Below, piece after piece: positions 1 to 51,400 of a DNA stretch of 64,000 bases. The DNA is from Eledone cirrhosa (lineage: Eukaryota): contig OZ024741.1 in the NCBI GenBank assembly GCA_964016885.1, positions 118,482,001 through 118,546,000 of the forward strand, read 5' to 3'. Position numbers and translations under genes: made by a program. The notes under the pieces are model-generated. The model was not told the origin of the DNA, made no database searches, and was given only the letters and a program-made list of their open reading frames with translations. Position 1 is the stretch's first letter; each line of letters starts with the position of its first letter.

Positions 1-179
1 ATATATATGTGTGTATATATGTATATATATGTGTGTATATATGTATATATATGTGTGTATATATGTATATATATGTGTGTATATGTGTGTATATATGTAT
101 ATATATGTGTGTATATGTGTATATATATGTGTATATGTGTATATATATGTGTATATGTGTATATATATGTGTATATATG

Positions 180-214
<35 letters not shown>

Positions 215-645
215 GTATATATATATGTATACATATGTGTATATATATATGTATACATATGTGTATATATATGTATACATATGTGTATATATATATATGT
301 ATACATATGTGTATATATATATATGTATACATATGTGTGTATATATATATGTATACATATGTGTATATATATATGTATACATATGTGTATATATATATAT
401 GTATACATATGTGTATATATATATATGTATACATATGTGTATATATATATATGTATATATGTGTATATATGTGTATATATGTGTATATATGTGTATATAT
501 GTGTATATATGTGTATATATGTGTATATATGTGTATATATGTGTATATATGTATATATATGTATATATATGTATATATATGTGTATATATGTGTATATAT
601 GTGTATATATGTGTATATATGTATATATATGTATATATATGTATA

Positions 646-678
<33 letters not shown>
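1..678. repeat. Compound (TA)n/(TG)n microsatellite
   Basis: Direct inspection. Confidence 0.98.
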
Positions 679-679
<1 letters not shown>

Positions 680-1127
680 CGATATTAACAAATGGAAACT
701 ATATTTATAAAACCATATCTATTCTATTATACATATTTCAAGGATACCATGTTAAATTATGGTATGCTTTCATCAGACAAAATACAATATATACCAGTTT
801 TATAAATAAATTTTAAATGCAACCGTTACTTTTGGAAGACATCAGGATATTAATATCCTGATGTCTTCCAAAAGTAACGGTTGCATTTTGAAAGGGTATG
901 TTAAAATTTATTTATAAAACTGGTATATATTGTATTTTGTCTGATGAAAGCATACCATAATTTAACATGGTATCCTTGAAATATGTTTAATAGAATAGAT
1001 ATGGTTTTATAAATATAGTTTCCATTTGTTAATATCGTATATTTACTCCAAATACTTGTCGAGTGCTTTATATCGGTTATAAAAATATTTGCTTGTTGTA
1101 TCCCAACAATTTAAATAGAACTTTTGC
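679..1127. mobile_element. Fold-back element, family A (Penelope-like pLTR remnant), with a hammerhead motif in each arm
   Basis: Arms of about 175 bp centred at 851/852 plus an unpaired tail of about 86 bp; related copies at 23919-24146 and about 32505-32600; flanked by (TA)n. Confidence 0.75.
933..997 (+). ncRNA. Minimal type I hammerhead ribozyme motif, family A (mirror copy on - strand at 720-784)
   Basis: TATTTTGT-CTGATGA-AAGCATACCAT/ATGGTATCCTT (stem II)-GAA-ATATGT(A/T)T-A|ATAGAATA. Confidence 0.65.
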
Positions 1128-1239
1128 ATATATATATATATGTATATATGTATATATATATATATACAAGCAAATTATAAATGTAAACATGTAAGTATGT
1201 TTTTGAAACGGTGCGCGAGTTTGAAATTAGAAATTATAA

Positions 1240-2380: not shown

Positions 2381-2388
<8 letters not shown>

Positions 2389-2565
2389 TGAGATTCTACA
2401 GGACTAGAACTGTTTCATTCTGTAGAAATCATCAGGAATCCTGATGATTTCTAAAGAATGAAACGGTTCTAGTCCTGTAGAATCTCATCTATATTAAAAC
2501 TTTTATAATCTGCTATGTATTGAGTACCTTACTTACTGTGGTTACCTCCGATTCAACCCGGAATA

Positions 2566-2566
<1 letters not shown>
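2381..2566. mobile_element. Fold-back element, family B, copy 1, with hammerhead motifs
   Basis: Inverted arms of about 57 bp meeting at atcagga/tcctgat, tail ending caacccggaataa, inside (TA)n; hammerhead on - strand at 2392-2440. Confidence 0.8.
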
Positions 2567-2605
<39 letters not shown>

Positions 2606-5000: not shown

Positions 5001-5672
5001 GTTTAATGTGCCTACCTAGCCCTTGACTGTCTTCAATGGAGTTAGTTTCATAATCATTAGGTCTTGTGTTCAATCCCACTGCAGAACATCTTGTGCATGT
5101 GTTATTTACTATAGTTCTGTTGACCCATACCTTGTGAGTGAAATTGGAGTAGATGGAAACTGTTTGGAAGCCAGTCAGATAGCCTTATAATTCAAAAATC
5201 CAGCCTTGTCACACACTGTCGTACATACATTCTCCCTGAGAATGATGTCAAGGATACAAGTGTCTATGGAATGCTCAGCCACCTACACATTAGTTCCTTG
5301 AACAGGTGAAATACATCGGATGGACTGTACATGTAATTCAAAAATCCATCCTTGTCATACAGTCGTGCTTAACCTTCCTCAGAATTATGTCCCTGGATCT
5401 ATCTGGAATAATTCTGAAGACTTCTGTTTACTCTTATGACCATACCAAACAACATAAAGGAACTTTTTTTGTAAAAGTATAACCTACCAGACAAACAGTT
5501 TACTAAATTGTCTTTATATTATTGTCTTCTCTGTTTTCTACCAGTGAAACTATTAACAAAATTCTTTTTATATTATTGTGGTTATTGTCTTCCATATTTT
5601 CTACCAGTGAAACTCTTTACTAAATTATTTTTTATATTATTGTACTTATTGTCTTCCATCTATTTTTTCCAG

Positions 5673-10900: not shown

Positions 10901-13814
10901 TCAAAATGTTGCCAGTCAGTAGGTTTGAATTGTTGCCACTCCAGCTTTAAATATAAATATTTTTACTCAAATCATTCAAAGATCTGCTGAGTAGTTGGGG
11001 AAAATTAAAAGGAACAAACAAACAAACAAACGTGTGTGTGTGCATACAAAAACACATATACACACACATTTTTGTGATTGTTCCATCTTCACAGATGATT
11101 GCCATCTCATTGTGTCCCCCCCCCCCCCCGATTCCATCACCATCAGTATTTTTCCTCCTATGCAAAAAAGCATACACCAGCATGGCCACACCAAGACCCT
11201 TGCTCCTTGACAAAGTTCCAACACAAGGCACTGTCAGTGAACCACATCCGCTCCTACTTATACTACACCTGCCGAGGTGAGGAAATTACAGAAGTGGAGG
11301 TATTTCATTGGAATGTATAATCATGACAGTTTTCTGACATGCCTGTCTAACTTCAGAACATGACAGACAACCTGTCTAACCCATGTAAACTTGGAAAATT
11401 GGTGGGAAACAGTGATGATGATGATACATACATATCATATATACATTTGTATGTATGATAGGATAAACCTGCAGGCGACTATCTCACTGGACTTACACAA
11501 AACATCAATACAAAATATATGGCACATTATAAATGTATGAGGTGTGACTTATACACAAGTATATACCATGAATAAGTACATTCATTTAATGGCTAAGTAG
11601 TGAGCTTTGTTACTCTGGTGATCCTATGAATGTGCAGGTGAAACTGCAGAATAAGGTTCACCCACTTAGTCCTAATAAATGAATATTTAAACTCTTCTTC
11701 AGTATTGAGTACTTTTTCTCGTGTCTGTCAATAATACTCAGATATATATATATATATATATATGATGATATATACACACACACTGTGAAAAACCTATATG
11801 TCTTATCTCACAAAACTTCAATACAAAATATATGGTACTTTGTAAATTCTATATGTAAAATGGAGGTATGTTTTTATATATACAGAAAAATACAATAATT
11901 TCTTTTTCCTTTTATTTCTCTGTCCATGTTTAGGAAAGTCCGATATTCAAAGTAGACTGGAGAGTGCTCTGCAAGACGTGAATGAAAAATACTTGGTACT
12001 AGAGGAGACTGAAAAAAATGCTGTGCGGACAGCATTAATTGAGGAACGGAGTAGATTTTGTATGTTTGTTACTTGTTTTAAGCCGTTTGTGGTAAGTTGC
12101 TTAATTTTATTTTTTTTTATTTTTGACATACATTTTTCTATTTAACAATCAAATCAAATGGGTATTATGTATGGTAGAGAGGACTCCTTATTCTTGCCAA
12201 GGACAACCTCTATATTACTGATGCAATGATAAAATGTAACCAGTACACTTTGTAAAGTGGTAGATATTAGGAAGAGCATCCAGCTGTAGAGACCATGCTA
12301 AAATTTGGAGTGTATAAACATGATATGGTTCCAAGGCCCATCTATGAGGACAGTAAGTCTGATTAACCCTTTAGCATTTTCATTACTCTATATTTGCTAT
12401 TGTATTTCCACAGTAAAGGCTTTATCTCACATAATATCCAATCTAAGAGATTTTGATATTATTTATTTTGAGAACAATTCCTTAACATAAGTATGAGCAG
12501 TCAGTTACAGCCAGTTTGAACAGAAAGAAGTGAAAGAATTTTGGCCGGATACAGCCAGTTTAAATGGTTAAGTACGGGCTTAGACTGTGACAACCCATCC
12601 AACCCATGTCAACATCGAAGGCAGACATAGAATGATGCTTTATATCACATCACTTCATAGTTTCTTTTATTGGAAGAATATCATGGTATCCTAACTCTTA
12701 TCTCGGTTTTTTAAGTGCTAGACAGAAATACCACAAAGTGTGCAAATAATGGAGCCTCTGCATAATTCTTTAACTTGTTTGAAATAGTTACCAAATTCCC
12801 CTCAAATCACATCCCTACTATCTTAGAAAAGAACACCTTGACTAATGTGGTTCCAGTACTTTACTGGCACTTTTTCGTCCTCCAGAAGTATGAAAAGCAT
12901 GGTTGACCTCGGTGGGATTTGAACTTAGAATGTAAAGGGCCTTAACTAAATGCTACTTAGCATTTTGTCTGATTCTCTAATAATTCTGCCAATCCACTGT
13001 CATATAGGATGAAAGGCAAAGTTGACCATGGCAAGATTTGAACTCTGAGAAAATACCAAGACATCATTAATCCAATGCCCTAATGCTTTGGCCTTCTCTG
13101 TTAATGATGATGATAATAATAATAATAATAATAATTGTTTCTACTTTTGGCACAAGGCCAGCAATTACCCAATGCATTACTGGTACTTTATTTTATCGAC
13201 CCCGTAAGGATGAAAGGCAAAGTTAACCTCGGAGGGATTTGAACTCAGATCATACAGGGAGGTAACTCTATGCTTCAAAGCATGGCATCCGACTCTCTAC
13301 CGATACTGCCATTCCACCACCTTAATAATAATAATAGTTTCTAATTTAGACACAAGACCAGCAATTTTGGGAGAGGGTAAAGTCGATTAAATCAACCCCA
13401 GTGTATTACTGGTGTTTTATTTTATTGCCCCATAAGGATGAAAGGCAAAGCTAACCTCGGCGGGATTTGAACTCAGATCGTAAAGGGTTGTAGCTCTATG
13501 CTGTAAAGCATGGTGTCTGATGCTCTACCAATGCTGCCAATCTACTGCCCTGATGATGAATTTGTATTCTTTTATTTAAGATTTTCGTTTTTTCATTTGT
13601 TTTTCTTTATTCTTTTTGTTGTTTTTCATCCACCAGGAATGGGAAATAAGTCTATTAACTGAGATTACACATTTAAAAGAAGTTATGGATAACCTAGCGA
13701 AACAATCAAGTGATCCTCACACATTGCCTGCCGCAAGTGAGCAAGTTATTTTAGATGTGAAGGGAGCTGACAGCAATGTCTGGGCATTCCAGGTGAGAAC
13801 ACTGAGGGAAAAAA

Positions 13815-19907: not shown

Positions 19908-22615
19908 CACCACCGATTAACATCCATTCTCCATGCTTGCTTGGGTTAGACAGGTCACCCACGTCATGAGACAAGTCTGGCCAGTTGGCCGCACCATACC
20001 TTGCTCAGACAGAACTGTAAATTTGGCTGGGAATTTTACAGCTGGATGCCCTTCCTAACACCAACTATGTTTACAGTGACACACACATACACACATATAT
20101 ATATATATACATATATATATTTGCTATAATACCACCCTTATCTTGCCATTGCTTTTGTTTTTGCTTTAAATGTTTATAATATTAACAAATTACTATCGAC
20201 TGTCTATAAATGTTGTTTTTGGTGTTATTTATTCTTTCTCCTTTTTATATCTAATACATTTGTCATATTATGGCCCCCATGATTACTTGGAATTATTTTT
20301 AGATTTTAGCCTTACTCTATAGAATTTACTAAAATTTGTAGACAGAATATTAACCATTCCATTACCACTCTTCAAATGAAAGACACTGTCCATGATGCCC
20401 AAACATTTTTGAAAATATTCCAGAATTTGGAAAGATTTTCTAACATAACTTTCTCATTATATTAAGCTAGTGTTAGGAACATAACTCAGAGGTTTTTACA
20501 TAAAATTATGATGGAGGGTTACTAAATAAATATAAACAATTTAAAATAAACAGCTCTTTGTTGTAGAAACAAGGTTGGTTTCGGACAGTTTGCTATCATA
20601 AGATTTAAAATAAAGTTTTGTATTATGGAACTGGTTTTGGTATATCAAAAAGGGTTACAATAAAAAAACAAATTTTTAATAAAAACTATTAGTAATTAGT
20701 CACACACAATTTCTTGATTTACCTAATGTTTTGGAGATTAACTTGAAGGTATTTAGATAAATATAAACCATTTAACCCTTCTATTACTGTATTTCTTATG
20801 AAAGGCGCTGCCTCTGATTTTGAAAATAATCAAGTATATGGAGTGATTTAGTAATATGACTAACTTATTTGTCTGGTATTTTGAATATAATAAAACTATG
20901 ATTTAATGCTTTTAAATAAATATAAACTCATTAAAGCAAACAGCTTTGAAACAGAACCAGTTGTGGTTTCAGGTTATTTGTATAAAAAAGACTAAAGATT
21001 TAGATTGTATCATCATCACAGTATCTTAAGTGAAAAATAGCTTTCTACAGAGAGAACCAACAGTGTTCTACAAAATAGAAAATGCATTCATTAAGAACAA
21101 TTCTGGGTTATACTCAATTTTTAGCCTAGACAAAGCCAGGAATCCTACTGGTTTTAAATAACATAGAAAGGGTTGGGATAATTCTGAGTTTGTCCTTTTT
21201 TTTGCTTTTTGTATATTTTTTATTGTGGAAATTTTAAGAATTTTATATATGTAAAGTAAGACTTATTGAACCTTTGGAGATGCCATGACATGGATGTATA
21301 TATATTTACATCTTGTAAATATATCTCAGTAACTAACTTTGCTATATGGTATGTGTTGCTTTTTTTCCTTCCCAGTAAACTAATTATTAATTTTTCATTT
21401 TTTGGTTAATATTTTTCTTATTGTATCGAGAAATGAATCTTTTGAAGTGTTGAAAATAATCTCTTATTTAATGTTTTTGTTTTCTATTTGAATAATAACA
21501 ATGTTCAAAAAACAATGTGTGATATGTATGTATCTTTATTAGAACAAATCACTCGACAGAATGGCAAATGTGTTACCCTGGAGAGCATAAAAAAAATATT
21601 TTTAAACAATGACTTTTATCATGAAATTCACCGAATTAGTGAAGAATTTGGGGGGATTTACTAAAATTATCAAATATTTCATTACTAAGGATTTACTAAA
21701 ATTATCAATTATTTCAATACTAAGACATAATAAAAACACAATATAAAAATGTTGGCAAATTGTAATTTAAATAGGACCTCTTTAACTCTTTCATTACCAT
21801 ATTAATGAATAATTTTGAGGGATTTACTGAAATTATTTCATTACTAAGATAGTAATTTAAGAAAAGGTTCTTAAAATTCTGTTTGATAATTTTAATTTAA
21901 ATAGACCTTTAAAACGAGGAGAGATTAGTTTCATCAACCAAAAGTCAATTTTGATCGTATTATATCAAGTGTTACACTTAAATATTAATCTAATCCCTCA
22001 ATTATCAGTTAGCTGTAGTAGATGTACTGAATAACTTATGTGAAATAAAACATTTTCTATGAATTGAAATTTCTCTAGTTGAAAAAAAATTGAAAGTTCA
22101 AGTTATTTTAGTTTAAATTATTTGGAAAACTTAAAATTCTCATGCTACTAAAATGATTAGTATTTGTTTTCTGTTTATTCTCATATACAAGGTGTCCCAA
22201 AAAACTGTATACACACTTTGATTACCTGTACAGACAATATTTATTAGAATACTGTTGAATCGTGTATACATTTTGGGGACACCCTGTGTGCGTGTGTGTG
22301 TGTGTGTGTGTGTATATACACACACATATACATACAGGGTGTATGTATGTATATATATATGGGTATTAGAGGTTCAAATTAATTGCGTCCATAAACAATA
22401 TGCCAAGATTAGCATTCGATGCTCGTGGGAGCAGAGTATCAATAATAATAATATATAAGGGAACACTTAGACGCAAGTCTACATGTGAACACATATCTTA
22501 GGAGCTTCTAACTCCAGAGTCGGGTTCGATCATTAATCAATCATTAATCGATCGTTCCTCGAACTGATCGACAGTAAAACATATTTAATATGTATGCAAC
22601 ACTAATTCTTTGTTC

Positions 22616-22654
<39 letters not shown>

Positions 22655-24142
22655 GATTCCATCTGTGTACATATTCTTCTATAGAATATGTATTTGGTAT
22701 ATATATACAATATACCGTGTTTCTTTTACAATATATGGCTCTTTCTCGCTCTCTATAAACATATATCTTTTAATTTGGTTTTATATATAACAGCTCCCTC
22801 AAGCACTGATGGTGATTATCGCTAAATATTGATGTTGCTTTGGTTATCAATATTAATATTATTGGGCACCCACTGAAGAATTATAAGAGCCCACTTGTAT
22901 AAGTATCTGTTGATCTTATACAAGCTTCTACATAATTTGGTATAATTTCACACAACTTGTAGAAATCTTATAATGAAACGAGTCGTCTGGGAAGTGATAT
23001 ATTTGATATATCTCATATGAAATGATACAGCCAATTATCCACACAATACAATATAGTTAGCACCCCGAACGTTTAATTGGGAATATACTCAGGTATTTCC
23101 TAATGTTTGTTGAGTGAGTTGGAATTTGGCCGGAGTATCGCTATTAGCTTTCTCCATTTATTTATATATATATATAGAGAGAGAGAGAAAGAGAGATTCT
23201 ACAGGACTAGAACTGTTTCATTCTTTAGAAATCATCAGGAATCTCTTCCTGTTGATTTCTAAAGAATGAAACAGTTCTAGTCCTGTAGAATCTCATCTAT
23301 ATTAAAACTTTTATACTTTGCTATGTATTGAGTACCTTACTTACTGTGGTTACCTCTGATTCAACCCGGAATAACTTACCTATATATATACATACACACA
23401 TTTTATTATGGTTAAGTGATGAGTCTTGTTACTCTGAATCATCAGAGACTCTACTTAGGTATTGAGTACTCACACAGATACATATATAACGTAAATGGTT
23501 CAGAAAATATTCATTTACTTGTGCGTGTGAGGGGAGTGGTGGTGGTCACATGGAATATTTTAAAATGTGCAGTAAAGTTTTAATTGTGGATTTTAACCCA
23601 ATTCTTAAAGAGTTACATAAAACTATATATTATATGGGTTAACATTTAGAATAATTTGAGATCTTTATAAACAATACAATAATGGTGTAGTAGATGTATA
23701 ATAATGTTGAAACAGTCTTGTCTTTGAAATGACATTTCCAGGGGAAAAGGGGGAGAAAAGTCATCTATCGCACCAGAATTTTTTGAATTTCCTATTCTTC
23801 ATTTTCAGAACCAATGTATTCTTCAGAAATCTTCTTGTATATATTTGTATATAAACATATATAAATATGTGTGTGTGTGTGTATAAATATATATATATAG
23901 GTATATATATATATATATACGATATTAACAAATGGAAACTATATTTATAAAACCATATTTATTTCATTATACATATTTCAAGGACACCAAGTTAAATTAT
24001 GGTGTCCTTGAAATATGTATAATGAAATAAATATAGTTTCCATTTGTTAATATCGTATGTTTACTCCAAATACTTGTTGAGTGCTTTATATCAGTTATAA
24101 AAATATTTGCTTGTTGTATCCCAACAATTTAAATAGAACTTT

Positions 24143-24187
<45 letters not shown>

Positions 24188-27299: not shown

Positions 27300-30200
27300 T
27301 AGCCTTTTCCCCTAACCATTAACCCTCCTTCCTCTGTTATTTCCCTACCCTTTAGCTTGCAATTATATTTACTATCGTGCTAACATCCACTCTCTGTATC
27401 ATCAAACACTTGTACAATTTTTTTAATTTTTTTTTATATATTGTCTTTGTAATAGTTTAAACAAATAGTGTTTCTTATTGTTGTATTTCATGAGGGTTGT
27501 GTTGTAATCAAAACACATGCACCTGATGAGTTTCACTTCAGTTTGGTAATTAATCCATCAATCAGTTGGTTAATCAACTAATTAATTGCCAAACTCCTTT
27601 TATCCCACCTTATCAATAACTCTTGCCCTCTGTGACTTTTTCTCCACACTAACTCCATCATTTTGTCTCTCATTGATTAATTGATTAATAACCTGATTAA
27701 TAATAACAATAGAAGTGAAATGAAACTCAACTGATGCATTTGACTGGTCACTTGAGCCTCCTAAAATATAACAATATCTATTTCAACACGATTTCATATC
27801 AAGAATCTTGCATAATAAATACAGAATCAGTGTTTTCTTATTTTTTTACTTTCTCCAAATTGTTGTCAAACGTCTGATATAAATATTGTTGTCAAACATC
27901 TGATAAAACAAACATTGCTAGTAAACATTTTGTTTGATATAAACATTGCTAGTAAACATTTTGTTTGGTATAAATATAATTAGTAAACTTTTTGTTTGAT
28001 ATATACAATGCTAGTAAACATTGTTTGATATATATACATTGCTAGTAAAAGTCTAATATAAACAAGTTGCAAACATTTGTTTGATATAAACAAATATAGC
28101 TTGCAAACATTTGTTTGATATAAATATACATTGCTAGTAAACATTTGTTTGATATAAACAAATAGTTAGTAAACATTTGTTTTATGTAAAAAAAACAGCT
28201 AGTAAACATGTTTAATGTAAACAAACATAGCTTGCGAACATTTGTTTGATATAAACATTAATAAACATTTGTTTGATGTAAACAAACAGCTTGTAAACAT
28301 TTGTTTGATGTAAACAAACATAGCTAGTAAACATTTGTTTGATATAAATAAACATAATTAGTAAATATTTGTTTGATATAAATAAACATAATTAGTAAAT
28401 ATTTGTTTAATATAAACAAAGATAGCTTGTAAACATTTGTTTAATGCTATCAAACATAGCTTTTATGTCAGACAACTACTTTAGATGTTTCCCTATACAC
28501 TGCCTAAGGAAAATAGCTTGTGGTTGTTCTTTATTTTTAAATTATAAAATGTAGGAAAATCTATATAATTGAATTGGGGGGGGTTATAGCCATTCAACAA
28601 CAAACGACAGTAAAGAACCGTTGACTTAGGAAGAATTAGGGAAAATGTGAAATGTAGTCATTCCCAACACAAATGATTATAGTAATAGTTAATCACTATA
28701 AACAATAGTTGAGATAGACTATTATTATGGCCATTTCTACATTGAGATGACTATATTTCAAATATGAAATATTGGCAATTTAAGGAGGAGTAAAGCTGAA
28801 AAAAACTTGGCTGAACGATGTGATTTATTCCATTGGCTGACCCATTCTACATCGACATGATATTACTGCAGACCTCGTGCCTTGCTGCAGATCAGTATAT
28901 CATCTTCCCATGTCACCTTCACAATAAAAGTGCCTGGAACAACTATATATATATATATAATCATCATCACCGTATATATATATATATGGAGGGGGGGGGG
29001 GGGTCATTCCATCTCTTCCTTCTTCATAAATAACAATATCCTCACTAACCTACATACAGAGCCTTAAATAATATAATTACAGAAATTGAGAATACATAGG
29101 CGGGTGTATGTATATGCACACACACGCACACACACTCTGAATGCATCAGCATCTCTACTAGATGTATTTTAGTGTGTGTATGTATGTATGTATGTATGTG
29201 TCTTTATATGTATTAAAATACATACTATGGGGGGGGGGGTTTAATGTATGTCATTTACTACTGATGGAACATTTGCTATTTCATCTGTGTTTTCTTTTGA
29301 TTTTCTTATGCTTATTTCTTGTAAACTCATATATTTCTTAGTCTCTTCTAACCACTGTCATTGTCAGACCATTTCTGTTCCAAGGGAAAATACTATGAAG
29401 TACTCGCTGCACTGCAGTGTATAGCAAGTGAAATAATTGATACACTGCAGTATATAGCCTGTCAAGTGCTTGATATACTGCAGTGTATAGCCAGTCAAGT
29501 GCTTGATATACTGCAGTGTATAGCCAGTCAAGTGCTTGATATACTGCAGTGTATAGCCAGTCAAGTGCTTGATATACTGCAGTGTATAGCCAGTCAAATA
29601 CTTGATATACTGCAGTGTATAGCCAGTCAAGTGCTTGATATACTGCAGTGTATAGCCAGTCAAATACTTGATATACTATACTACAGTGTATAGTCTGTCA
29701 AGTGTGATACATTGCAGTGTATAGCCAGTCAAATACTATTTTTTGTGCATTCCAAAAGAAAATACAATCAAGTACGTGAAGGGGCATGACTTAGTGGTTA
29801 GGGTGTTTAACTCGCAATCATAAGGCCATGGGTTCAATTACTGGACAGGGTGGTATGTTGTGTTCTTGAGCATAACACTTCATTTCATCATTGCTTTAAA
29901 TGGTAGGACTAAGGCCCTTATCATTAAAGCACCCAAGAAACCTCCTATGAGAAGCACCCTTGAAAGAAGCCAACTAAGCCATAATGTGTGAGCTGTGAAT
30001 TTTTTTTTCTTTACACTGCAGCACATAGCCAATCAAATGCAGTGATGGTGGTGATATACCTAAATAAACACCATTCAGCAGTGACAATCTATTGCCATGC
30101 CATTTGCTTATGTTGGTGTTCTAAGGATAACACAATTTCACCTTACATAAAGAATCCAACATAAAACTCTCTCTCTCTCCCTCTCGTTCAACTTCAACTT

Positions 30201-32246: not shown

Positions 32247-35200
32247 CATATATACAGGGGGTCCCAAAAAATGTATACACACTTCAACAGCATTCTAATT
32301 AAAGTGTGTATACATTTTTGGGATACCCTATATATATATATAATGAGTTATATGGTTTGTTGATTATTATTCAACAGAGTTAATTTTATAACATATTTGA
32401 AACACTCTACAGAATTAATCTGGAGTATTATTAATATTAACAATATAGCGGGCTTCAACTATTAAGTTTTCGCTAAGTTGTGTCAATATCTTAACACCAA
32501 ATATTATATTTTATCTGATGAAAGCACACAAAAATTTAGTGTCCTTGAAATACGTAAAATAAAATAAATATGGTATTAAGATATTTTCCATTTATTAATA
32601 TATTTATATATATATATGTGAATATTATATATTTTTTAATGAAGCTCATTGCTGATAGCATCATACTTGTTTTCTTTTTGCCAAATTCTGTACACACCAA
32701 TGCTTTCAAGAATAAATAAACATATTTCTCTATTTAAGACTTCTAAAAATTAAAGAGAATATATATATATTCCACTACTCTGAATACTAGATATTGTGAT
32801 AATAATTTACCTTAAAAGTCAATTTATAGAATAAATAAATTTGAAATTTTAATTTCCTTTCAATTCATTCTGATACTCTATGTAAACGGTTATATCTAAA
32901 AAATTTTTTTTTTTTTTTACACAAGCTTCAGAAGTTATTTCACATGTCTTAAATTAAATTTCTTTGGATGCTAAGCTAACTATTATTGATATTTTCTACG
33001 TGATAGATCTGATTGAAGAATTGAATTATTAATCGTGTTTACACAAGATTTGCGAAGTAGCACAACCAAAAAATTAGTCTAAATGAAATAATTAGTGGTG
33101 AAGAAATTTTTTTTAATTCTATTTATTTTGTACTTTACATTTGAAACTTTATTGCACAAACACTGATACTTTTTTTTTTTTTTTTTTTTTTTTTGTCACA
33201 TTTTGGTGGTAAATAGTTTAAATGTGGTTAATCTGGAGATTTGATTAAAACTGCTTTTTGAATACCTGTTATCGGAATAAATATATTTTTTGTATATAGT
33301 TATATAAATCTTTAATGTATGTGTACATACACACATGGAGACTGGCTTGTTTATATTTTGCTCTAATTATGCCAAAACTTGCTGTTTATCTTAAAGAATT
33401 ATTGAACACATTTCTAATGAAATACACTGTATTTTAATTAATGGAGAATTTAAAGAGATTTACTGAAATTATTATGTCATAATTTAATTGACATTTTAAC
33501 ATAACAAAAGGTTCTTATATAAAATGCAGTAATACGCCAGCTTTAATATCCAATCATCAGAAGGGACGTAGATATAAAAGCCAAACTTGCTATCTTCAAT
33601 TCAGTACCTGTGCCAACCTTTACCTATGGTCATGAATCTTGGGTAATGGCTGAAAGAATATGATGACAAATGCAAGCATCCAAAATGGGGTTTCTGAGTG
33701 GTTTGGAGTAATGTTACTTGATAAAGTGTAGCTTGGTGATCAGTGAATTGCTCCAGGTAGAGCTACTGCGTCTCCAAATAGAAAGATCACAGAATCCAAT
33801 ACTTCAGACATGTGGTCAGAATGTCCAAGGAAAGAATCGCCGGATAGATTTTACAAGCAAAACCAACTGACAGGAGACCCAGAGGTAGATCTCAAGAGAG
33901 ATGGTTGGATAACATGATGAGCTCAGCTAGTCTTTGGAGACATTTGCTCCTGAAAGGACCCACTGGAAGGCATGTCTGAGGAATAAGTGGATGAAAAGGG
34001 AGGCTTCATTTCATAGAACCAGAGGTGGTTTTGAATAGATTGATATCAAAAGAATTGTTCTTCAATAAGATTTGATAGTTTAAAAATTCTAAATTCTAAG
34101 TTACAACATAAGAAAAAGATTATTATATGATTACTTTGTCTTATATCCTCTCCTCCAGGAGATGAACTAAAAATGAACTGGTTTTTGGGGGGATTTTTTA
34201 TATCTTTTAAAACAATTTTCTGGAGAAATTTTCAAGATTAGATATTAAGATAACCATCAGTTGTTAAATAATTTTTTTTTAAATATATTGTATATTGTTA
34301 TTCCTTTCAGATTTTTGATAAGTTATTTTCTTCAACATTATGTTGGTGGCTTAATTTTTTCATTTCCATATTTCTAATGGAAGACACTAATAATGGACAT
34401 TTTAGAGGGATTTCTCATTATTAAGTTGAAACAGTGGATTGGCAGTATCGGCAGAATGTCAGATACCATGTTTTGCAGCATAGAGTTATGGCCCTTTGCG
34501 TTCTGAGTTCAAATCCCACCGAGGTTAACTTTGCCTTTCATCCTTACGAGGTTGATAAAATAAAGCACCAGTAATGCACTGGGGTAATTGCTGGCCGTGT
34601 GCCAAAAGTAGAAACAATTATAGAGTTGAAACATAACAGACTCCTGCTACATATAATTATGAAGCAGCTTTGACTTATAGAACCAAGGGTAGTATCATGG
34701 TTTTATATTAGTATCTGTATGATAGAACTACAGGCAATTTTGGGCAGATTGGTATTGAAATGATTAATTTTAAATTTTGGATTATATCTTATTTTTAGAA
34801 GATAATTTTTTATTTACTTAGGACCAAATTTTGTATCTCAAATCTTAGCTCTTATTTGAAATGTCGCTTATTGTTCCGATTTAGCATATATCATGATCAT
34901 GTAATGTCCATTTTCTCTGTTAGCAAGGGTTGGACACACAAAGTTGTTATATCATTGTTTCATACCATGCTTCTTTACTAAAATACCAACACCCTAACTA
35001 CTAAACTTTACTAATACAACGTTGTTTCCAAATCTTTCATTGATACCTTATTTATAATATACATCTTTTTATTTCTGTTTGTTTTTGTTTTGGGGTTTAT
35101 TTCTGTTAATTAAAAATTTTAGTTCATTATTGCATGCATTTCTTGTTTTGTTTTTTTAATAAATAAATCACTTTTTAACTGAATTTTGCTGTCCCCTCAT

Positions 35201-38390: not shown

Positions 38391-38812
38391 TCCTTTACCT
38401 GTTCCAGCCATCCAGCTGAGGCCATGCTGGGGCATATATATATTGTGATTTTTTTTTTTCTCCCCGTTCCTTCCTCTTCTCACTCTCTATCTTTCTATTT
38501 TATTTTTTATTTCTAACTCTATCTTCTGATGGACTTGTGTCCAAAACATTCAGATTCTTTTCTTGCTATTTCAAGCATTAAATTAATATATTTCTTCAAT
38601 GTGCACCTTTTTAGGTTTGGACCCGGGTTTCTGCAAATGTAGAAAGTATCAATAAATGTATTTATAACTTGATGCACTTATCGTTACTTTCTGCATTTGT
38701 AGAAACCCAGGCCCAGACCTAAAAAGATGCACACACCACATCTAAACTATTAACAGGTCCCAAGATCTGTTTAGATACACTTATTGATGGTTTTTTTTTT
38801 GGGGGGGGGGGG

Positions 38813-41800: not shown

Positions 41801-43978
41801 ACACGAGATGAGTGAAACAAGTCAGATCAGGTGACCACGTCTTGTTCATACACAACTATTTATAGTTTGTTTTCTACAGTTGGATGCTCTTCTTAATGCC
41901 AACCACATTTACAGTGTGGACTGGGTGCTTTTTATCATGGCACCAAAAACGACCAACTGGCAGGTTGAACGGGGTACTTTTTCATTTCACCAGCATAACC
42001 ACTTGACAGGGTAGACTGAGTGTGTTTTGAAGTTTTACCAGCATGACCACTTTAAACTTAATAGTTAAGGTTTGATAACATTGCTATTTTTTTTTTTTTT
42101 TATTCAACGTGTTATTGAAGAAAACAGTGTTTGTGTTCATCTATGTGTTGTGTTGTAGTTTACTATGACGCAGGGTCTGGGTAAAGCAGTGGTGGTAGGT
42201 AATATAATTAATTTAACTTTACAAACCTCAATAGAATAATTAGATTTTGACATTAACTAAAGAAATAAGTTACTGTGTGACTTGACAATTTGATGGAAAA
42301 AAATGTATTAATTTTGATTGTTTGTGTGTATGTCTTCCATTTTTGCTACTATAAGCAGATTATATAATATGACAGCTAAACATAGAAATAGGCACAGGTA
42401 TGGCTGTGTGGGTAAGGGGTTTGCTTCACAGCCACAAGGTTCTGAGTTCAATCCTGCAGATATAGCGTCTTGTACTATAGCCTCAGATAGGCAAATGATT
42501 TCCAAATGGAATTTTGTAGAAACTGCAGAAATGCTGTGTATGTATGTATGTATGTGTGTATGTGTATATATATGTGTGTCTGTATGAAGGTGCATGGCAT
42601 AGTGGTTAGAGCATCAGGATTACAATCACGAGGTTGTGTGTTCGATTCTTGGACCAGGCTTTGCGTTGTGTTCTTGAGCAAGAGACTTCATTTCACGTTG
42701 CTCCAGTTTACTCGGCTGTAGAAATGAGTTGCAACATCACTAGTGCCAAGCTGTATCGGACATTGCCTTTCCCTGGAACAACATTGGTGGTGTGGAGTGA
42801 GGACACTGGTATTAATGGGTAATTACTGGTCTTTCCACAAATAACCTTGCACAGACTTGTTCCTCGGAAGGGAGCTTTCTAGGTGCAAATCCCATGGTCA
42901 TTCGTACCAAAGAGGGTCTTTACCCTTTTACATTATATATATATATATATATTTGTTTGTTGTTCATACACGGAACAAAAGTGCTACCTAATGTTTCAAG
43001 GCTCAATATTGACATTTTCTCCAGAATAAGAGGGATCTTTATACTTGTATATGTGCCTGAAGATTATGTCACAATTTTGATCCCCCTTACATTCTGGAGA
43101 TGTGGTCAATATTGGGCCTTGAAACCTTAGGTAGCACTTTTGTTCTATGTATGAACATAAATAAATAATATAATATAATGTTTCAGCTCTCTTCCTGATT
43201 GAGCACTATTTTCCTTTTTCATTCCTATGGATATTGCTACACACACACATGCGTGCGTGCACATGTGTGTGTGTTTATGTACTGTAACATAATAATTCAA
43301 CAAAAAAATCAATAAAATAAGTACTGGGGTAGATATGATGATTAAATCAAGGTGTTGCCACAGCATGGCCACTGTTTTACAAATATAAACACACACACAC
43401 ACATATATATATAAACTAAATCCCCAAAATAATGTAAAATCCTATTGTTTTTAATGAAATCTAGTTGAAGACATTTATTTAACTGTGTTGGCTTTTTTTC
43501 CTCCAATCTATTGTTCTGGATGCTTCTTATATATCCTTGCTGTTGCTAATCTGTTCTGTGAAACATCTGTTTTGTTTTAGATGTGGAGTGAAGGAGAAGG
43601 GGCTATTATAAATGTTCTGATAATGCTTTAACTTTGTTTTGTTGGTCTGATATTTATTATTTTGCCTGCTTCTGGTTATTTATTTGCTTTAGAAACTTTC
43701 AAATGAGAGATGAACAACATACACATATGTATGTGTGTGTGTGTGTAAATATAAATACATACACACACACACACACAGTCTCCCTAAAGTCTGGACAGAA
43801 ATGTGGAGTTAAAGCATTAGGGTTTGTGTGAATCTCACAAAGCACATCGAACTTTGCATCACAAATGTTGGCAATTACATTCAAGATATGTTATTTATTA
43901 ATATTTCAACTTAATAAATTGTTGAATTTATTTTTATTGAAAATATGCATTTTGCTTGTGTGTCCAGATTTAGAGACT

Positions 43979-44018
<40 letters not shown>

Positions 44019-45959
44019 TTCAGTTTGTAAAATTGCACTCATATAATGTATTAGTGAATCAAATTCCAATGCTGCAAGATTTTTACATTTTGATTTGTTA
44101 TTTAACAAATACTTGGATTTACAACAATGTTCAGGTGAATACCTGAAAATTGTTGTTCAACATGAAAGTGCTGGAATTGGATATACAGAGTGTCCCAAAA
44201 AAATGTATACACACTTTGATTATCTGTACAGGCAATATTTATTAGAATGCTGTGCTCATATATACATATATAATATATATATATACACACACATATTTAT
44301 GCACTTATATATAACATCATTTTTTTTCATTTGGTATGGCTTTACAGAGCATTACTTTACCGAATGTTCATACAATAGATAAAATTATGATGAAATGGTT
44401 TTAATATAAGTGAGAACTTTCAAAAGTGCAGCCCTGAATCATAAAATCAGTGGTAGTTTTAAACAGGCCAGTATCAGGGAGGGGTGGCCAATACCCATGA
44501 CCCTATATTTTTACAGGGAATGATAGGCAAAGAGGAGGGAGTTTCCTTTAAAGCAGAGGTCGAGCCCCAAAACTTACAATGGAATGGATCTCTGTTAATA
44601 ACACAAAAGACCAGGCAGTCTTGGTGTTAAACAGGGTAATGGATTAAGTCTACTTCTCAGTATTTTTTTTTATTGTAAGTTAATTGGCCTGTTATTCAAT
44701 ATCTGATAAAGCAGGTTAATTTCTGTTGAGAATTGATTGTGGTTTTGTGTGTTTTGTATGTATATATATATTATATATGTATACACACACATATATATAT
44801 GCATGCATATGATATTTTTACATCACGTTTGTTTTTCTCTAAAATTAGTTTGTTAAATTTTCTTCAAATTTAAGGATAAAACTGAGGACATTTCTGAGGA
44901 GACCCTCACAACTGAACAAGTAAGCATTGTAAATTGTTTTGCTGATTGCAAATACCCTCTGGTCAGCAGCTCTTCATCATTCCAATTATGCATGCTGATA
45001 CATTGCAGATGCCTATTCTATCCTGATTGCAAACTGCCTGCAAAGATAGAACAATATCTACTCTCTATTCTTCTCTTAACAGATATCCTCCCATAAACCA
45101 GCCCATGTATGATAAATGAAAGTCTCTCCTTCAAAAGTCAATTAAATCTCTTAGTAATTGAATATGCCATCATTTATGCCACACTAGTCTCATTAATAAT
45201 TATAAAGCATGAATTTCATTTATATTTACTAACAATAATTATATATCATAGTTTGTAAAACCAGAACATGATTGTTTAATTGAGGAAAACATCTTGAGAC
45301 CTTTGTGATGCTAAACAATACCCAACAAGTATTTTAAAACCATTTACCATACTAAAACAGAGATTAACCTTACAAGTTTGATGACAAACTTCATTTTGTC
45401 CTTATCACCTGCATGCCCCATCACCAACCCTCTAGCTTTCATTTCCTCTTCCATCTTTAGTCATGTCTTTCTTGGTCTTCTATTTCCATCCACATTCATT
45501 TCCGTCACTCCTCTCACCCAGACATTTTCATCCTTCCTCAATACATGACCCAATCACCTCATTTGATTTCTCTTCACCATATTTCATTATTTGTCTTCCT
45601 CCCTCTCAGTGATACTCCACTTATCCACTGGACCATTCTTTCCAGCCTTTGCTGTTCCACATTCATCACTCATGTCTAGCTACAATAAATCAAGGCACTA
45701 CTGACATATACAGCATACTACTTTCTCTTCAGTTTCAGTGACACTCCTCGCCTCATTAGCCCACAACTCTAGAACTTTCTAGAACTTCTTCCATGCATAT
45801 CTCCCTTTAGTTACTTATCCATTCAACATATCTTCAAGGTAATAAAATGTCACCTACCATCTTCATTCAATTTCCAATAACAACACCACAGCTATCTATC
45901 TATCTATATGGAAGTAGGAGGATAGATAGATTAATATCTGTACACTCACCTACTTATTC

Positions 45960-46030
<71 letters not shown>

Positions 46031-48425
46031 CAATATTAACCATAAAAACCATAATTTTGATATGATTCATTGTTTTAATTGAACCACTTTGGTTAATGTG
46101 AGAGGAGTTTATCAGTCTCAGTTGATCTTTTTATGAACTGTTAGGTTCTCTGTCTTAGTTCCTAATTGTAGTGTTATCTGTCTCAGAATCTGAGCTGTTA
46201 GGTTCCCTGTTTCAGGTCCTAACTCTAATTTATACAGTATTAAGCAGATAAGACAGGTCACTCCAAGATAAAATGTTAGTCTACTCTAGGTGTCCCTTTT
46301 ATAAAAAGCACACAGTAGAGTATCAATAACAGTTTGAAATGATGACTTTTACACCAGTAAATCCTCATGCCTGTTACTTCCCACTTGTCCATCATGGTTT
46401 GATGAGAAATTTGAAAATAAATGGGTTAATATAGTTGTAGTAATATAATCTTCTTGTCTTCATTGATCAACATAAATTAGAGCTAAGTTGCATTATCTGA
46501 TAATCCTACAATCCTCATGCCTCATTTATTACTAAGTGTTCTCTCTTATTAAATATAATTTGTGTTGCTGTGAAGGTCTTGATTGGGGACAGTAAATTAA
46601 TCAGCAAATTATTCTCGTTAAGCCTCTCTGGTCACTTGTTAATTGGCTAAATGGTTTTTTGTTCCTCTTACTGATGCCAATAACATGGTAGTTGTTGTGT
46701 TCCTCTTGCTAACATGGTAGCTACATGTTTGTTGTGTGGCACTTGCTAACATGGTAGCTACATGTTTGTTGTGTGGCACTTGCTGACATCATCACCACCA
46801 TGGTAGCTACATGTTTGTTGTGTATCACCTCACCATTTATGCCATCTTGTGGCATCCAGTAAGGATTTGGATTGACATGAATTAATTTCATTAAAACCAA
46901 AAGCAGTGGGGCATTTAATATGAGAAAATATATCTAATATAGCAGGAGAAAGCTCTGCTTTTTCATATTAGATATTAGATATATTTTCTCATATTAAACT
47001 CCCCCTATATATATATGTTAAGGCCGAAACACTTGCTTGTGGGTGGGGGTCTTCTTCGAAGACCTTCTGCTGTCCAGCTATCCTGTGAGGTTTTTTTTAC
47101 CACTATATATAATAATCACCATGTCCATTTAAATGATGATATATATATATATATTCATATGCAGCATACTTCACTTTGATTTATTTTATGTTCCTCTTTC
47201 TATTTATCTGTCTATCTACTTATCAGTTTGTTTGATGTCTTTAAGCTACTGAGAGATTTTAAATAACTAATCTGAATAAACTCAACCAGGTGGAGTTTAA
47301 TAAGCTGACCCTATCAGTAACAGCACTATTTCACCATGTCGTGTGTGTGTGCGCGCAGTACAGTAATACAGTTCCTCTCTGTCCTCATCAATCCCTTTAT
47401 TCTATAGCATATCTTCAACACACACATTTCATATCCATCTCTTCCTAAAAACCTTTGCTAAAGACAGAACTTTAAACCATATACAGTACTTTAAACCATA
47501 TTCATCATCGTCATCATCATTTTAAGGTATATTTTTCCATGTTCTCATCTCATGGATTAGAGAAGTTTTCTCAAGTACAGCATTTCTTATCTCTTCATGT
47601 TTCTTTCAAATGTTATCTCCCTTGTGATGTTCACTATCATGAGATCAGCTTTCACTACTTCTGACCAGATCTTTCTTGGTTTTCCTCTTCCACAACTTCC
47701 TTGCAGTTTTACACCCAACAATCATTATCAATATTATCATTAAATTTAAAGTATTAGCAGGGGAATGGATTCAACACAAAAACTTCTCCAGATTAAAAAA
47801 GATTTAATCATATTTGTTTCAGGAATTCATACTTTGGAGATTGGTCTTCCCTTTGTTATAACTTAGTTTATTCTATATTCTATCAGATAAAGTTCTTATA
47901 AATCTATCATCGTTTGGGAACCTGATTGCAAATAATTCTTGCAATTATTTTCCTTGTCTGTTTTAAAAAGGAATTTACTCAATGAAAGTCAATAAAATAA
48001 TCTGCTTTTACAGAAGTGTCACATTAATGAAATCTTCTCATCTTTCTTTTAAAAAACTTTTTTCTTTTCAGCATATGTTTCATTTGAGTTTTCCAGAACC
48101 TTTTATTTGTTAGTGTTATTGTTATTGTTCTTCCTTCTGTGGATATTTGTGCTGTCTGTCTGACCCCCACCACTTCCTTTATTTCTTCATTCCATATATG
48201 TTAGCTTTATTTTCTCTCTTAGTTCCATAAACACATACACATCCATCCCATCATTTTTGGTTTTCTTTCAGAAAGGCGGTGAACTCTTGTCTCTAATTAG
48301 TTGCTGCCAATGTTGACTGTATTTGTAGCAATTGATTGCTATTATATCCAGAAATAATCAGACTGTTTGGACTCGGTGCCAAGATCACATTTGTCTCCGC
48401 CTCTCCCTCTCCCGCTCTCGCTCTT

Positions 48426-48460
<35 letters not shown>

Positions 48461-51400
48461 TGCTTCCGGATTATTGGCTTTGTATGTGTAAAGTTCCTTG
48501 GTACGATACCATTATCTGGTCTGAAACCCATGCAGTTCTGACAGTCACCTGCTGTTAAATAACATTTAAGAAATATTTCAATATGGCTGATGTTTGGGCC
48601 AGTATTGATTGATGGATATTAGTTTAATATTTAAAGAGATCTTAAAATAAGAACTTAACCTCATTTACTTTTGAAAAAAAGATAAGAGAAGGCATCTTAT
48701 TTAGTGTGTTAGGGTTGATAAGAAATTTTACTAGATGAGATATATATCTAGTAAAATTGAAGGTCTTACGTCTAATATGTTAAAACCCTCATTTATTTCT
48801 TCCCAAATGTGAAGTTCATATTTAATATAGAAATGGCTTCTACAGGACTAGAACTGTTTCATTCGGAAAAAATCATCAGGGCTTCCTAATGACTTCTCCC
48901 AAATGAAACAGTTCTAATCCTGTAGAAGCCATTTCTATATAAAATATTTATACTCTATGTATTGAGTACCTTATTTACTGTGGTTACCCCCGATTGAACC
49001 CGGTATAAACTTATATATATATAAATAAATTTTGGAAGAAACGGGGAGCTGTGTAGTTACTTGATAAAGTGTATTTAAAAATAAAAGGAAAGCACAAGCG
49101 GGGGACAATCCCTTCAGTTGTCTGCTGGAGATCACGGACATTTTATATATATATATATATATAGTTCAAGAATAAATGAAACAAACACAGGTGAGAAAAC
49201 AGTCTTATTAGGTTCACACTTGGGAAGAAGTAAATGAGGGCTCCAATATATCAGACGTAAGTCCTTCACGAAATAGCAAAGTTCAGAGAGAGAGAAAGGG
49301 TTAGAAAGGAGTTTAGAAGATTGGAAAAGAAAAAGGTTTTAAGACTGCAGGGGTTGGGGCCAAGATGGGTAGTACATGTGTGCAGATAGTGCATGTCAGG
49401 TGTGTGTGTAGTGCATTTCAGGTGTGTGTGTGTGTGTGCGAACACTCTGTACAGTTGCACTAGTTACAAAGAACTCTAATACTATCACAGAGTGGATAAA
49501 GGTAACTTACATGAATTTCATCTTTCAAATTATCAAAGTTATATATATATATATATATATATATGACTCTATTATGTGTTCCAGCCAACAGGCTGAGGCC
49601 ATGCTGGGGCACTGCCACTGTCTATAACCAGCTTTCCTTGGTTGGCCATTGATGCAAAGGGGAGTTATTTGCACTTCATTTTGCGCTATGAGTTCATCCG
49701 GAATCTTGGTCAGTAGAATGTCGAGATGTCTCTTCAAAACATTTACATGCGCACCATGTAGATCTCTCAGATTTTTTAGCAGCTTATTAAGAAGCTGGGG
49801 TCCCTTGAACTCCAGACTATTGCAGTATGTGATTCTTATTCTTAATGCAATGGATGGGACCTTGGCACTACAGTGTGGCATCCTGTTTGTGGACTGGTCT
49901 TGCTTTCAATGCTGCAGTTTGGTGCTAACCCTTCCAGGATCTTCCATACATATATCACTGCTTATCTCTCTTGTCTTCGCTCCAGGGAGTAAAGCTTCAG
50001 TTTTTTTTCAGCCTCTCCCAGTAGCTTATCTCTTTCACTGAAGCTCCGGATGTTTCAACACCTAGATCCATTCGGATCTAGCTGTCGAAACGGCTGGAGC
50101 TCAGCCATCAAGATCCTGAATCTTTTACCCATTCTACTACCCCAAGTATCAATTACTCTGGTGGGTTATGGTTCACCTGGTATCTTACCACACCCTCTCT
50201 GATATATATATATATATATATATATTCAAAACTGAAACTTTTTTTTTTTTAGTTATAAATATGATAGTTGGTTATAATATCTATATATAAAATATTTCTA
50301 GCTCCTTTGCTTACCTGCATGTGCTTGTATCTTCTTCTCTAAAAGAACAATATCAGTATAAACCATTTTTTCTTGTATTTCAGTCGTCTCAAATCAGAAA
50401 AAAAAAAACAGTGACGGTACTTTATTCAATATTATTTTTTTGTTCTTTTTTAATCTTTGGTTGGTTTTCTTTTTTTTCTGCACCTGTCTTGGATTCTTTT
50501 AACAATTCCAATAATCTCTAGATTGCTTTTGAAATATACTTATGGTTTTATTGTTTTGTTAATTTAATACATGTTTTTAAACATGGTTATTGTTAACCAA
50601 TAACATTTTTTTTCATGGAAGGGTCATTTTAGTCATTGAAAACATTAACTCACAAAAACTATTTTCCACTGCAGTTTACATCAGTAGAACTGTGACCAGG
50701 ACCAGGTCACCAACTGTAATAACAAAAATAAATAAATTTAACTGTCAGTGACCAAGTCACAAATATTGTGATGAAAATTTTGACAGCAAGAAATATGTGT
50801 AAAGTGAAATAAAGTTTTTTGTGTGTTTTTGAATGGCTAAAATAACTCTTCCATGATGTAATAGTTTTAGTTTCAACAGTTTTTTTGGATTGAGTCACTT
50901 GCCAAAGAAGTACAACTGTGGCTAAAATGACTTGTTTTATGTAATTATTTTAGTTTCAACATACGGTCTCAGATCAAGTCATCTGCCTGACATATACAGC
51001 TCTGAAATATTACTTGCAAAATCTTTTTACCAAACTAAAATGGTCATATTTGCTTCTGTATTCTGCAGTCTGATGGCTTCTCGCCTTCTTTAGGCAGGCT
51101 CTGCTTCAAATCTCCTTCTCTCTCTTTCCAAAAGCTTTTTTCCATTCTATATTTGGATGCATTTTTTTTTTTTTACCATCAACAGTTTCCAGTTTATGTG
51201 TATGGGTATATACCCATGCACATAATCTTTGAAGTTGCAATTATAATGGCGTGTGTGTGTGTGTTATGTGTCTTTCACATGTGCTGCTGCCCTCTATTGG
51301 AATTTGAAGTGAAGCAGTATTTTCTTCTTTTTATTGATATTATTGATTGATTTCTTTAACAAAAAAAACTACATTTTAGATTCCTTTCATTTCATTCGTA

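Follow-up and report, generated by a model that had tools for sequence, protein, structure and literature searches.

Insertions of Penelope-like elements (PLEs) have been described as consisting of an inverted, 5'-truncated copy and a tail of 30-40 bp, and PLEs of the Hydra clade target (TA)n and carry a canonical hammerhead near the 3' end, one of them, Hydra-1_Obim, occurring in octopus (accessible parts of PMC8557442). The same source describes Penelope-13_HM as having one motif on each strand. The minimal hammerheads of metazoan PLEs form paired motifs 100-700 bp apart on opposite strands, and the usual closing pair of stem II in hammerheads is G10.1-C11.1 (accessible parts of PMC4209133). 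For PAc, the protein of a Poseidon element of Anolis, in vitro work reported cutting and extension of both strands of AT-rich DNA from two RT start sites, which flank the tail and lie downstream of the hammerhead, with hammerhead cleavage being dispensable (PMC11167929, in part). In an Octopus vulgaris assembly, PLEs account for 6.83% and fall into 190 families, 31 of which were called recently active (PMC13282606, in part), which indicates that helpers exist in the genus.

We analysed a window of 64,000 nucleotides of Eledone cirrhosa DNA, whose features are collected in Table 1. An insert near its start, A1, is probably the 3' end of an EN+ PLE, namely a pLTR with a predicted hammerhead and a tail, whose palindrome was probably built by joined cDNAs during insertion into (TA)n. 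Both a non-autonomous family and shortened copies of an autonomous element fit this PLE reading. A Pfam search of 300 of the 340 open reading frames of the window (at least 48 aa, low-complexity filtered, the 40 shortest left out) recovered no RT or GIY-YIG domain.

Table 1. Features of the palindromic inserts and their surroundings in the 64,000-nucleotide window
Feature	Position	Strand	Remarks
Left flank, (TA/TG)n microsatellite	1..679	.	Sequence
A1 inverted arm, tail-less	680..851	-	Begins at internal TA site; lacks 14 nt of the other arm
Predicted type I hammerhead, intact	720..784	-	Core 776-770; stem II of 10 bp plus C-C; 8-bp stem I
A1 forward arm, pLTR-like 3' region of element	852..1037	+	Arm comparison
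Predicted hammerhead, damaged	933..997	+	Core 941-947; GAA 978-980; stem III ATATGTTT
Internal TA site (TATAT), where inverted arms start and meet (TA)n	1038..1042	+	Boundary comparison and read ends
A1 tail, ending at fixed 3' end	1043..1127	+	Hairpins at 1045-1064 (bulged) and 1093-1109
Right flank, (TA)n	1128..1165	.	Sequence
Family B copy 1 (B1)	2383..2568	+	Hammerhead in both arms, tail, (TA)n
MTSS1/IMD-domain gene exons	5672-55382	+	Mapping of Octopus sinensis MTSS1
Family B copy 2 (B2)	23193..23378	+	Same build as B1
Family A copy A2	23920..24145	+	Same outer ends as A1; centre inside stem II; lacks the core
Family A copy A3, diverged, non-palindromic	32343..32601	-	Tail-bearing part about 32343-32445 (minus); inverted part about 32445-32601
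A3 hammerhead, U16.1 lost	32507-32566	+	Within the A3 inverted part
Family B copy 3 (B3), diverged	48818..49013	+	Stem I altered on both sides

The loop-less palindrome with a single indel of about 14 bp that the earlier note had read from the sequence is borne out, as are its unpaired tail and its setting in (TA)n. The palindrome is centred on the 851/852 junction without any spacer, and its inner arms match exactly over 37 bp. The two arms (680-851, 172 nt; 852-1037, 186 nt) differ by one internal substitution besides the 14-nt indel, and they stretch to 675 and 1042 if a 5-nt TA overlap with the flank is counted. The unpaired tail of about 85 nt reaches 1127, and (TA)n borders the insert on both sides. 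The fold predicted for the whole element, at -271.5 kcal/mol (z = -38.7), was equalled by none of 100 shuffles. The hammerhead lies 138 nt upstream of the 3' end, and the TATAT at 1038-1042 is the putative internal priming site.

Both arms of A1 contain CTGATGA, an 11-position stem II (10 bp and one C-C mismatch), GAA, an 8-bp stem I, an 8-nt stem III and A17, positions being numbered by the general convention for type I hammerheads. The claim of a hammerhead in each arm therefore stands for CTGATGA, stem II, GAA and stem I, whereas ATATGTAT is confined to the left arm, where it forms a palindromic stem III with a predicted cut after A728 (AUA). The sole substitution between the arms sits in this stem, which reads ATATGTTT in the right arm (T987), and T987 is private to A1, reads showing A there in about 100% of the family. 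A descriptor comprising the core, three stems and UH, which was composed post hoc with the motif already seen and whose shuffle figures are thus generous, is passed by the left arm and was matched in one of 20000 shuffles; its three matches in the window (the A1 left arm and two family B arms) compare with a mean of 0.01 in 200 block shuffles. The A1 right arm and the A3 copy at 32.5 kb both fail the descriptor that the left arm passes. The search with hammerhead models proposed earlier gave a divided outcome, positive for the A1 left arm by descriptor and negative by Rfam, which returned no hammerhead over 690-1125 at E<=10 (24 matches, all to other families) and, for the whole window, TA-repeat miRNA noise only among the 150 of 285 matches listed. 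A degenerate hammerhead pattern had no matches in metagenome contigs, prokaryote genomes or viral contigs, and the hammerhead monomer folds are not unusually stable (z of -0.45, -0.50 and -2.19).

The predicted motif departs from the usual one in the A-U pair that closes stem II and in the AUA cleavage site; the A-U closure replaces G10.1-C11.1 in all three family A motifs of the window. A read subfamily (952-985) has another 3' strand of stem II, ending in a C run before GAAA, together with A at N7. The C at 977 in part of the reads, which are unphased, could restore a G-C closing pair in a subfamily. Among the 40 of 76 variants listed, core variants are restricted to N7 (945), with none at 11 conserved core positions and 15 at 56 others (p = 0.06), a scarcity that is only suggestive. 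By our own count in unphased reads, eight of 12 listed stem variants keep pairing, and four (955, 967, 970 and 977) break a pair as listed. The three motifs of the window show one two-sided and two one-sided stem changes, a degree of covariation reached by 161 of 500 shuffles and hence not significant. None of the sequence-level outcomes by which the earlier note would have been contradicted arose, although three motifs probe covariation only weakly.

The copy near 32510 had been credited with a different, still-pairing stem II and with a stem III pointing to ATACGTAT as the family consensus. Its altered stem II, AAGCACAC/GTGTCCTT, does pair and represents the one two-sided change; its stem III, however, reads ATACGTAA, so that U16.1 is lost. 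The proposed consensus is not supported by the reads either, as the change 984 T>C is absent and 985 G>A is present among the 40 of 76 variants listed. Compared with ATACGTAT, ATATGTAT, with two central G-U pairs in a dimer, is the better-supported form of stem III for the subfamily of A1. The self-duplex of stem III is predicted at -2.2 kcal/mol in the left-arm form and at -6.5 kcal/mol in the form first proposed, and no stable monomer hairpin was found; stem III of family A could, on this prediction, self-pair between two molecules. The two A1 arms as an active dimer are ruled out, because a cleaving dimer requires motifs on the same strand and those of A1 lie on opposite strands. In transcripts of either strand, both motifs are predicted to be buried in one long hairpin, and it is the damaged copy that lies on the sense strand of MTSS1. 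The opposite strands and the predicted burial thus argue that duplication left one hammerhead in each arm as a by-product and that the pair does not form a two-ribozyme device.

Two further copies of family A are present in the window. A2, absent from the earlier note, is nearer to A1 than the 32.5-kb copy is; over 1022-1127 of A1 it is identical at 103 of 106 nt and has the same 3' end, and the left boundary of the inverted arm is identical in the two. Its loop II has the polarity of the inverted arm, and its forward arm carries a 14-nt deletion; pairwise counts for that arm are left out since an alignment may place the deletion so as to mask A1 differences. A3 joins about 100 nt of tail-bearing sequence (minus strand) to about 155 nt of inverted sequence, and the hammerhead is found in the inverted part but missing from the tail-bearing part, which shows that the former is not a copy of the latter. 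All three copies are flanked by (TA)n. A second family in the window, family B, is unrelated to family A and has the same build of tail-less inverted arm, hammerhead, tail and (TA)n. Its hammerhead has a 3-bp stem II with U-U at its base, an ACAG/CUGU stem III whose 8-nt loop is partly palindromic, and a GUA site, and in all three copies the junction falls no more than about 10 nt upstream of the core. Across the six copies (A1-A3 and B1-B3), an inverted, 5'-truncated, tail-less copy is always present, and the tail, about 70-90 nt long, stands at one end only.

Four of 16 sequencing runs were mapped on 852-1127 at 80% likeness, and family A matches comprised 4524 contigs in X1 (organism A), 32816 reads in X14, 77 contigs in X4 (organism B) and two contigs in X7; X14 consists of RAD data dominated by few loci, and its frequencies are not those of the family. 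Across the hammerhead and tail, X1 depth sums to about 1 million, whereas the individual contigs listed reach 7-63. Together with three copies in 64 kb, this depth suggests that family A may amount to tens of thousands of inserts, summed depth not being equal to copy number. Toward the 5' side, X1 depth falls about 70-fold (about 1.0 million at 932-941, 14 thousand at 852-861), which is what 5' truncation predicts. At 1002-1021 it reaches 2.3-2.8 million, about 2.5 times that of the tail at 1062-1101 (0.93-1.06 million), as expected if most inserts carry the body twice and the tail once; in X4, the body exceeds the tail about 10-fold or more rather than 2-fold, and here too summed depth is not copy number. 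Loose ends behind 1042 read (AT)n in 58 X1 contigs and 5703 X14 reads, which places the start of inverted arms at a fixed internal TA site. Of 24 joints in all, 15 were listed and 12 of these switch strand, with varied pairs such as 856/1045, 894/1061 and 917/1031; the joint table holds no information on the tail side, and the majority of read joints are backed by just 1-3 start places. Alleles present in both A1 arms are infrequent in X1 (905A about 1%, 998G 8%, 949A 15%, 967A 20%, 993G 26%), and the sharing of such rare alleles indicates that both arms came from one template or that one arm was copied from the other. The declining depth toward the 5' side, the fixed ends on (TA)n and the variable inversion points fit what had been proposed from the sequence alone, namely a PLE-derived, non-coding family that has an inverted segment and a hammerhead of the dimer type.

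A mechanism of the following kind would account for these inserts. The GIY-YIG enzyme of the element, presumably a PLE enzyme, would cut both strands of a TA run, whereupon one DNA end would prime reverse transcription at the RNA 3' end and give the tail-bearing arm, and the other would prime at the internal TA site, 85-90 nt upstream, and give the tail-less inverted arm. Both cDNAs would end prematurely, and a head-to-head joint would form between them, either at a short microhomology or through fold-back of one end. Equal stops would produce a loop-less palindrome such as A1, and unequal stops an asymmetric insert such as A3. Any action of the hammerhead would take place in the source transcript, where two tandem pLTRs on the same strand would supply the dimer; the motif in A1 would be a passenger, predicted to be buried in a hairpin of about 172 bp. 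Such two-primed joining resembles the twin priming of L1 and agrees with what PAc does in vitro (PMC11167929, in part). The outer ends are fixed and common to A1 and A2 while the centre varies. Direct inspection of the sequence assigns the unpaired junction spacer to the inverted arm for A2, B1 and B2, but to the tail arm for B3; since its polarity differs between copies, either arm can be the longer one. The polarity of five junctions suggests two separately primed cDNAs, and twin target-primed events would be the simplest account of the junctions. The 14-nt gap in the A1 inverted arm counts against the mechanism unless it is a later deletion or a synthesis slip, and the likeness of the A1 arms could stem from later gene conversion.

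A PLE origin in which the inversion arose without a second target priming, through fold-back and self-copying of a single tail-primed cDNA or of an antisense template, is unlikely, although head-to-head junction palindromes in rotifer Penelope elements have been taken as self-priming (accessible parts of PMC3846280), arms inside one copy are nearly identical, and the B3 junction has the predicted polarity. A2, B1 and B2 have the opposite polarity, which fold-back of a tail-primed cDNA alone cannot produce, and the A3 inverted part holds sequence missing from its tail-bearing part; moreover, the two-primed mechanism already allows either cDNA to fold back when the arms are joined. More improbable still is that the copies are dispersed non-LTR retrozymes, in which a self-cleaving tandem repeat of about 300 nt would give rise to small circular RNAs and be moved in trans by PLE proteins. 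The type I hammerhead, the AT-rich, non-coding sequence and the size would suit such an origin, retrozymes have been argued to derive from PLE pLTRs (10.64898/2026.07.22.740005 and PMC7229834, both in part), and two weak head-to-tail joints occur at 1030 (six reads and two starts each). However, no tandem occurs in the window: none of the three copies is arranged head to tail, all having inverted arms and a tail, and the retrozyme account differs from insertion of a PLE 3' end only in the nature of the master copy.

A fixed palindromic unit moved as a hairpin-type non-autonomous DNA transposon (MITE, foldback or Helentron-like), with the hammerhead look-alike as a relic or chance resemblance, has very little probability. 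It would explain a near-perfect palindrome in a TA context and the 3' hairpins of the tail, and true MITE-like palindromes do occur in the same window. Yet the tail lies outside the inverted repeat, so that the ends are not inverted repeats of each other; copies that share both outer ends have different centres, A3 is non-palindromic, and depth declines to one side. In addition, the full hammerhead fold is found in two unrelated families, with three matches against 0.01 expected. The TIR-plus-TSD structure of a MITE that the earlier note had named as refuting its reading was not seen, as centres vary, A3 is asymmetric and the tail stands outside the repeat; a TIR-MITE is excluded by the variable centres and non-palindromic copies. 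An assembly or library artefact is scarcely credible: perfect fold-backs are a known artefact type, no contig spans the whole of 852-1127, and reads were mapped on 852-1127 only and not over the centre, but a substitution and a 14-nt indel set the two arms apart, five other inserts of the window share the build with centres of their own, and the inverted-arm boundary recurs in independent reads.

Just past the internal TA site, a bulged hairpin of the form RCTC-[stem-loop]-NN-GAGY is present in A1 (1045-1064), A2 (24063), A3 (32426, minus strand) and B2 (23315), and it is degenerate in B1 and B3. A descriptor for it, composed post hoc, matches the window seven times, where 200 shuffles average 1.7; four of the seven matches fall in families A and B, and the hairpin appeared in 0-3 of 5000 tail shuffles. 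Among the 40 of 76 variants listed, read variants fall on three of six unpaired positions and on none of 14 paired ones. The 3' ends of Hydra-2_Amil and Hydra-2_Ajap show the same layout by eye, Hydra-1_Crog less clearly, whereas the remaining three consensi in the file end at most about 50 nt from the hammerhead and lack the hairpin (PMC8557442, in part). No remark on such a hairpin was found in the portions of the PLE literature examined. A short insert between TA runs after B2 (23380-23480) carries the tail-hairpin motif (23448) and a minus-strand CTGATGA without GAAA, and is possibly a fragment of a third family.

The exon at 11927-12091 shares 98% identity with MTSS1 of Octopus sinensis. 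On the plus strand, the mapping of that protein starts with residue 70 at 5672, and its residues 1-69 are unmatched in the window. As the mapping begins downstream with these residues unmatched, A1 likely lies inside an upstream MTSS1 intron; the other family copies fall between mapped exons. A small TIR family with ends like TATACAGGGTGTCCC (22183-22290, 32257-32322 and 44181-44260) has a look that we take to be of Tc1/mariner MITE type. Palindromic elements without a hammerhead core, likely MITEs, occupy 38600-38733, 42961-43157, 46908-47004, 54537-54669 and 56692-56739, and together with families A and B they form dense self-contained hairpins in these introns. The window also contains a piggyBac-type transposase remnant (52622-53334; PF13843, E 8e-15), an ORF (49528-49905, minus strand) that resembles by eye the C-terminal part of an RTE-type LINE protein and has no Pfam match, and a degenerate tandem repeat (27868-28462) with a period of about 180 nt.

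In a comparison of species, octopus ranked among the top two for both hyper-editing signal and dsRNA fraction, and the corresponding signal in frog is partly due to a palindromic repeat (PMC5625713, in part), of which the family A and B inserts are candidate octopus counterparts. It is possible, though on balance doubtful, that hammerhead-bearing PLE ends, with six in 64 kb, are a major unannotated source of hairpins in octopus introns that drives much of the dsRNA load and A-to-I hyper-editing, that their junctions record twin priming, and that the RCTC...GAGY hairpin is a Hydra-type recognition signal. Short palindromic stumps of this kind are likely mislabelled as MITEs, SINEs or unknown repeats, and family A may already be present in an O. 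vulgaris repeat library or in Repbase/Dfam. As the architecture is known, the finding is a modest one, and its value lies in the material it offers for the study of mechanism. The formation of PLE inverted structures has been named an open task (PMC8557442, in part), and junction polarity counts over thousands of short copies with two fixed ends could separate twin priming from self-priming.

Compared with the retrozymes, family A shares the AT-rich, non-coding sequence, the type I hammerhead and the relation to PLEs (PMC7229834 and 10.64898/2026.07.22.740005, both in part), whereas non-LTR retrozymes are defined by head-to-tail tandem units and the family A copies are inverted and tailed (PMC7229834, in part). 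With the minimal type I hammerheads it has in common a long helix II, a palindromic helix III suited to dimers and opposite-strand pairs, but it is longer, with an 8-nt stem III and an 8-bp stem I, and A-U replaces G10.1-C11.1 (accessible parts of PMC4209133). The PAc start sites are not homologous to the target, whereas the internal site of A1 consists of TA and has 5 nt in common with the flank (PMC11167929, in part). Naiad was rejected as a source, as it lacks canonical hammerheads and only remnants of it occur in cephalopods.

With Hydra-clade PLEs, family A shares the (TA)n target, the tail and a hammerhead about 100-200 nt from the 3' end, but its stem III begins with AU, whereas all 26 Hydra rows in File S2 begin with AC (PMC8557442, in part). 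Identity with Hydra-1_Obim was rejected, since the hammerhead and 3' end differ by eye (PMC8557442, in part). Motifs of the window had no matches in the available supplements of PMC8557442 (six motifs) and PMC13282606, where FASTA line breaks could mask one, and in a literature that included few subscription papers no octopus hammerhead or palindromic PLE family beyond Hydra-1_Obim, and no PLE twin priming, was found described. The stem III of family B begins with AC, as in the Hydra rows, among which U-U at the base of stem II occurs in 14 of 26 and the ACAG/CUGU-A stem III in three of 26 (PMC8557442, in part). In its details, the hammerhead of family B agrees with those of Hydra type, the Hydra clade itself being defined by protein. 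The closest likeness in architecture is with EN+ PLE insertions, which share the tail-less inverted segment arranged head to head, the palindromic junction, the 5' truncation, the tail at one end and a microsatellite target that hides any TSD (accessible parts of PMC8557442 and PMC3846280). A1 differs from them in being the size of a stump without an ORF and in its tail of about 85 nt as against 30-40 (PMC8557442, in part), and the architecture of the insert is already known from the PLE insertions of other animals.
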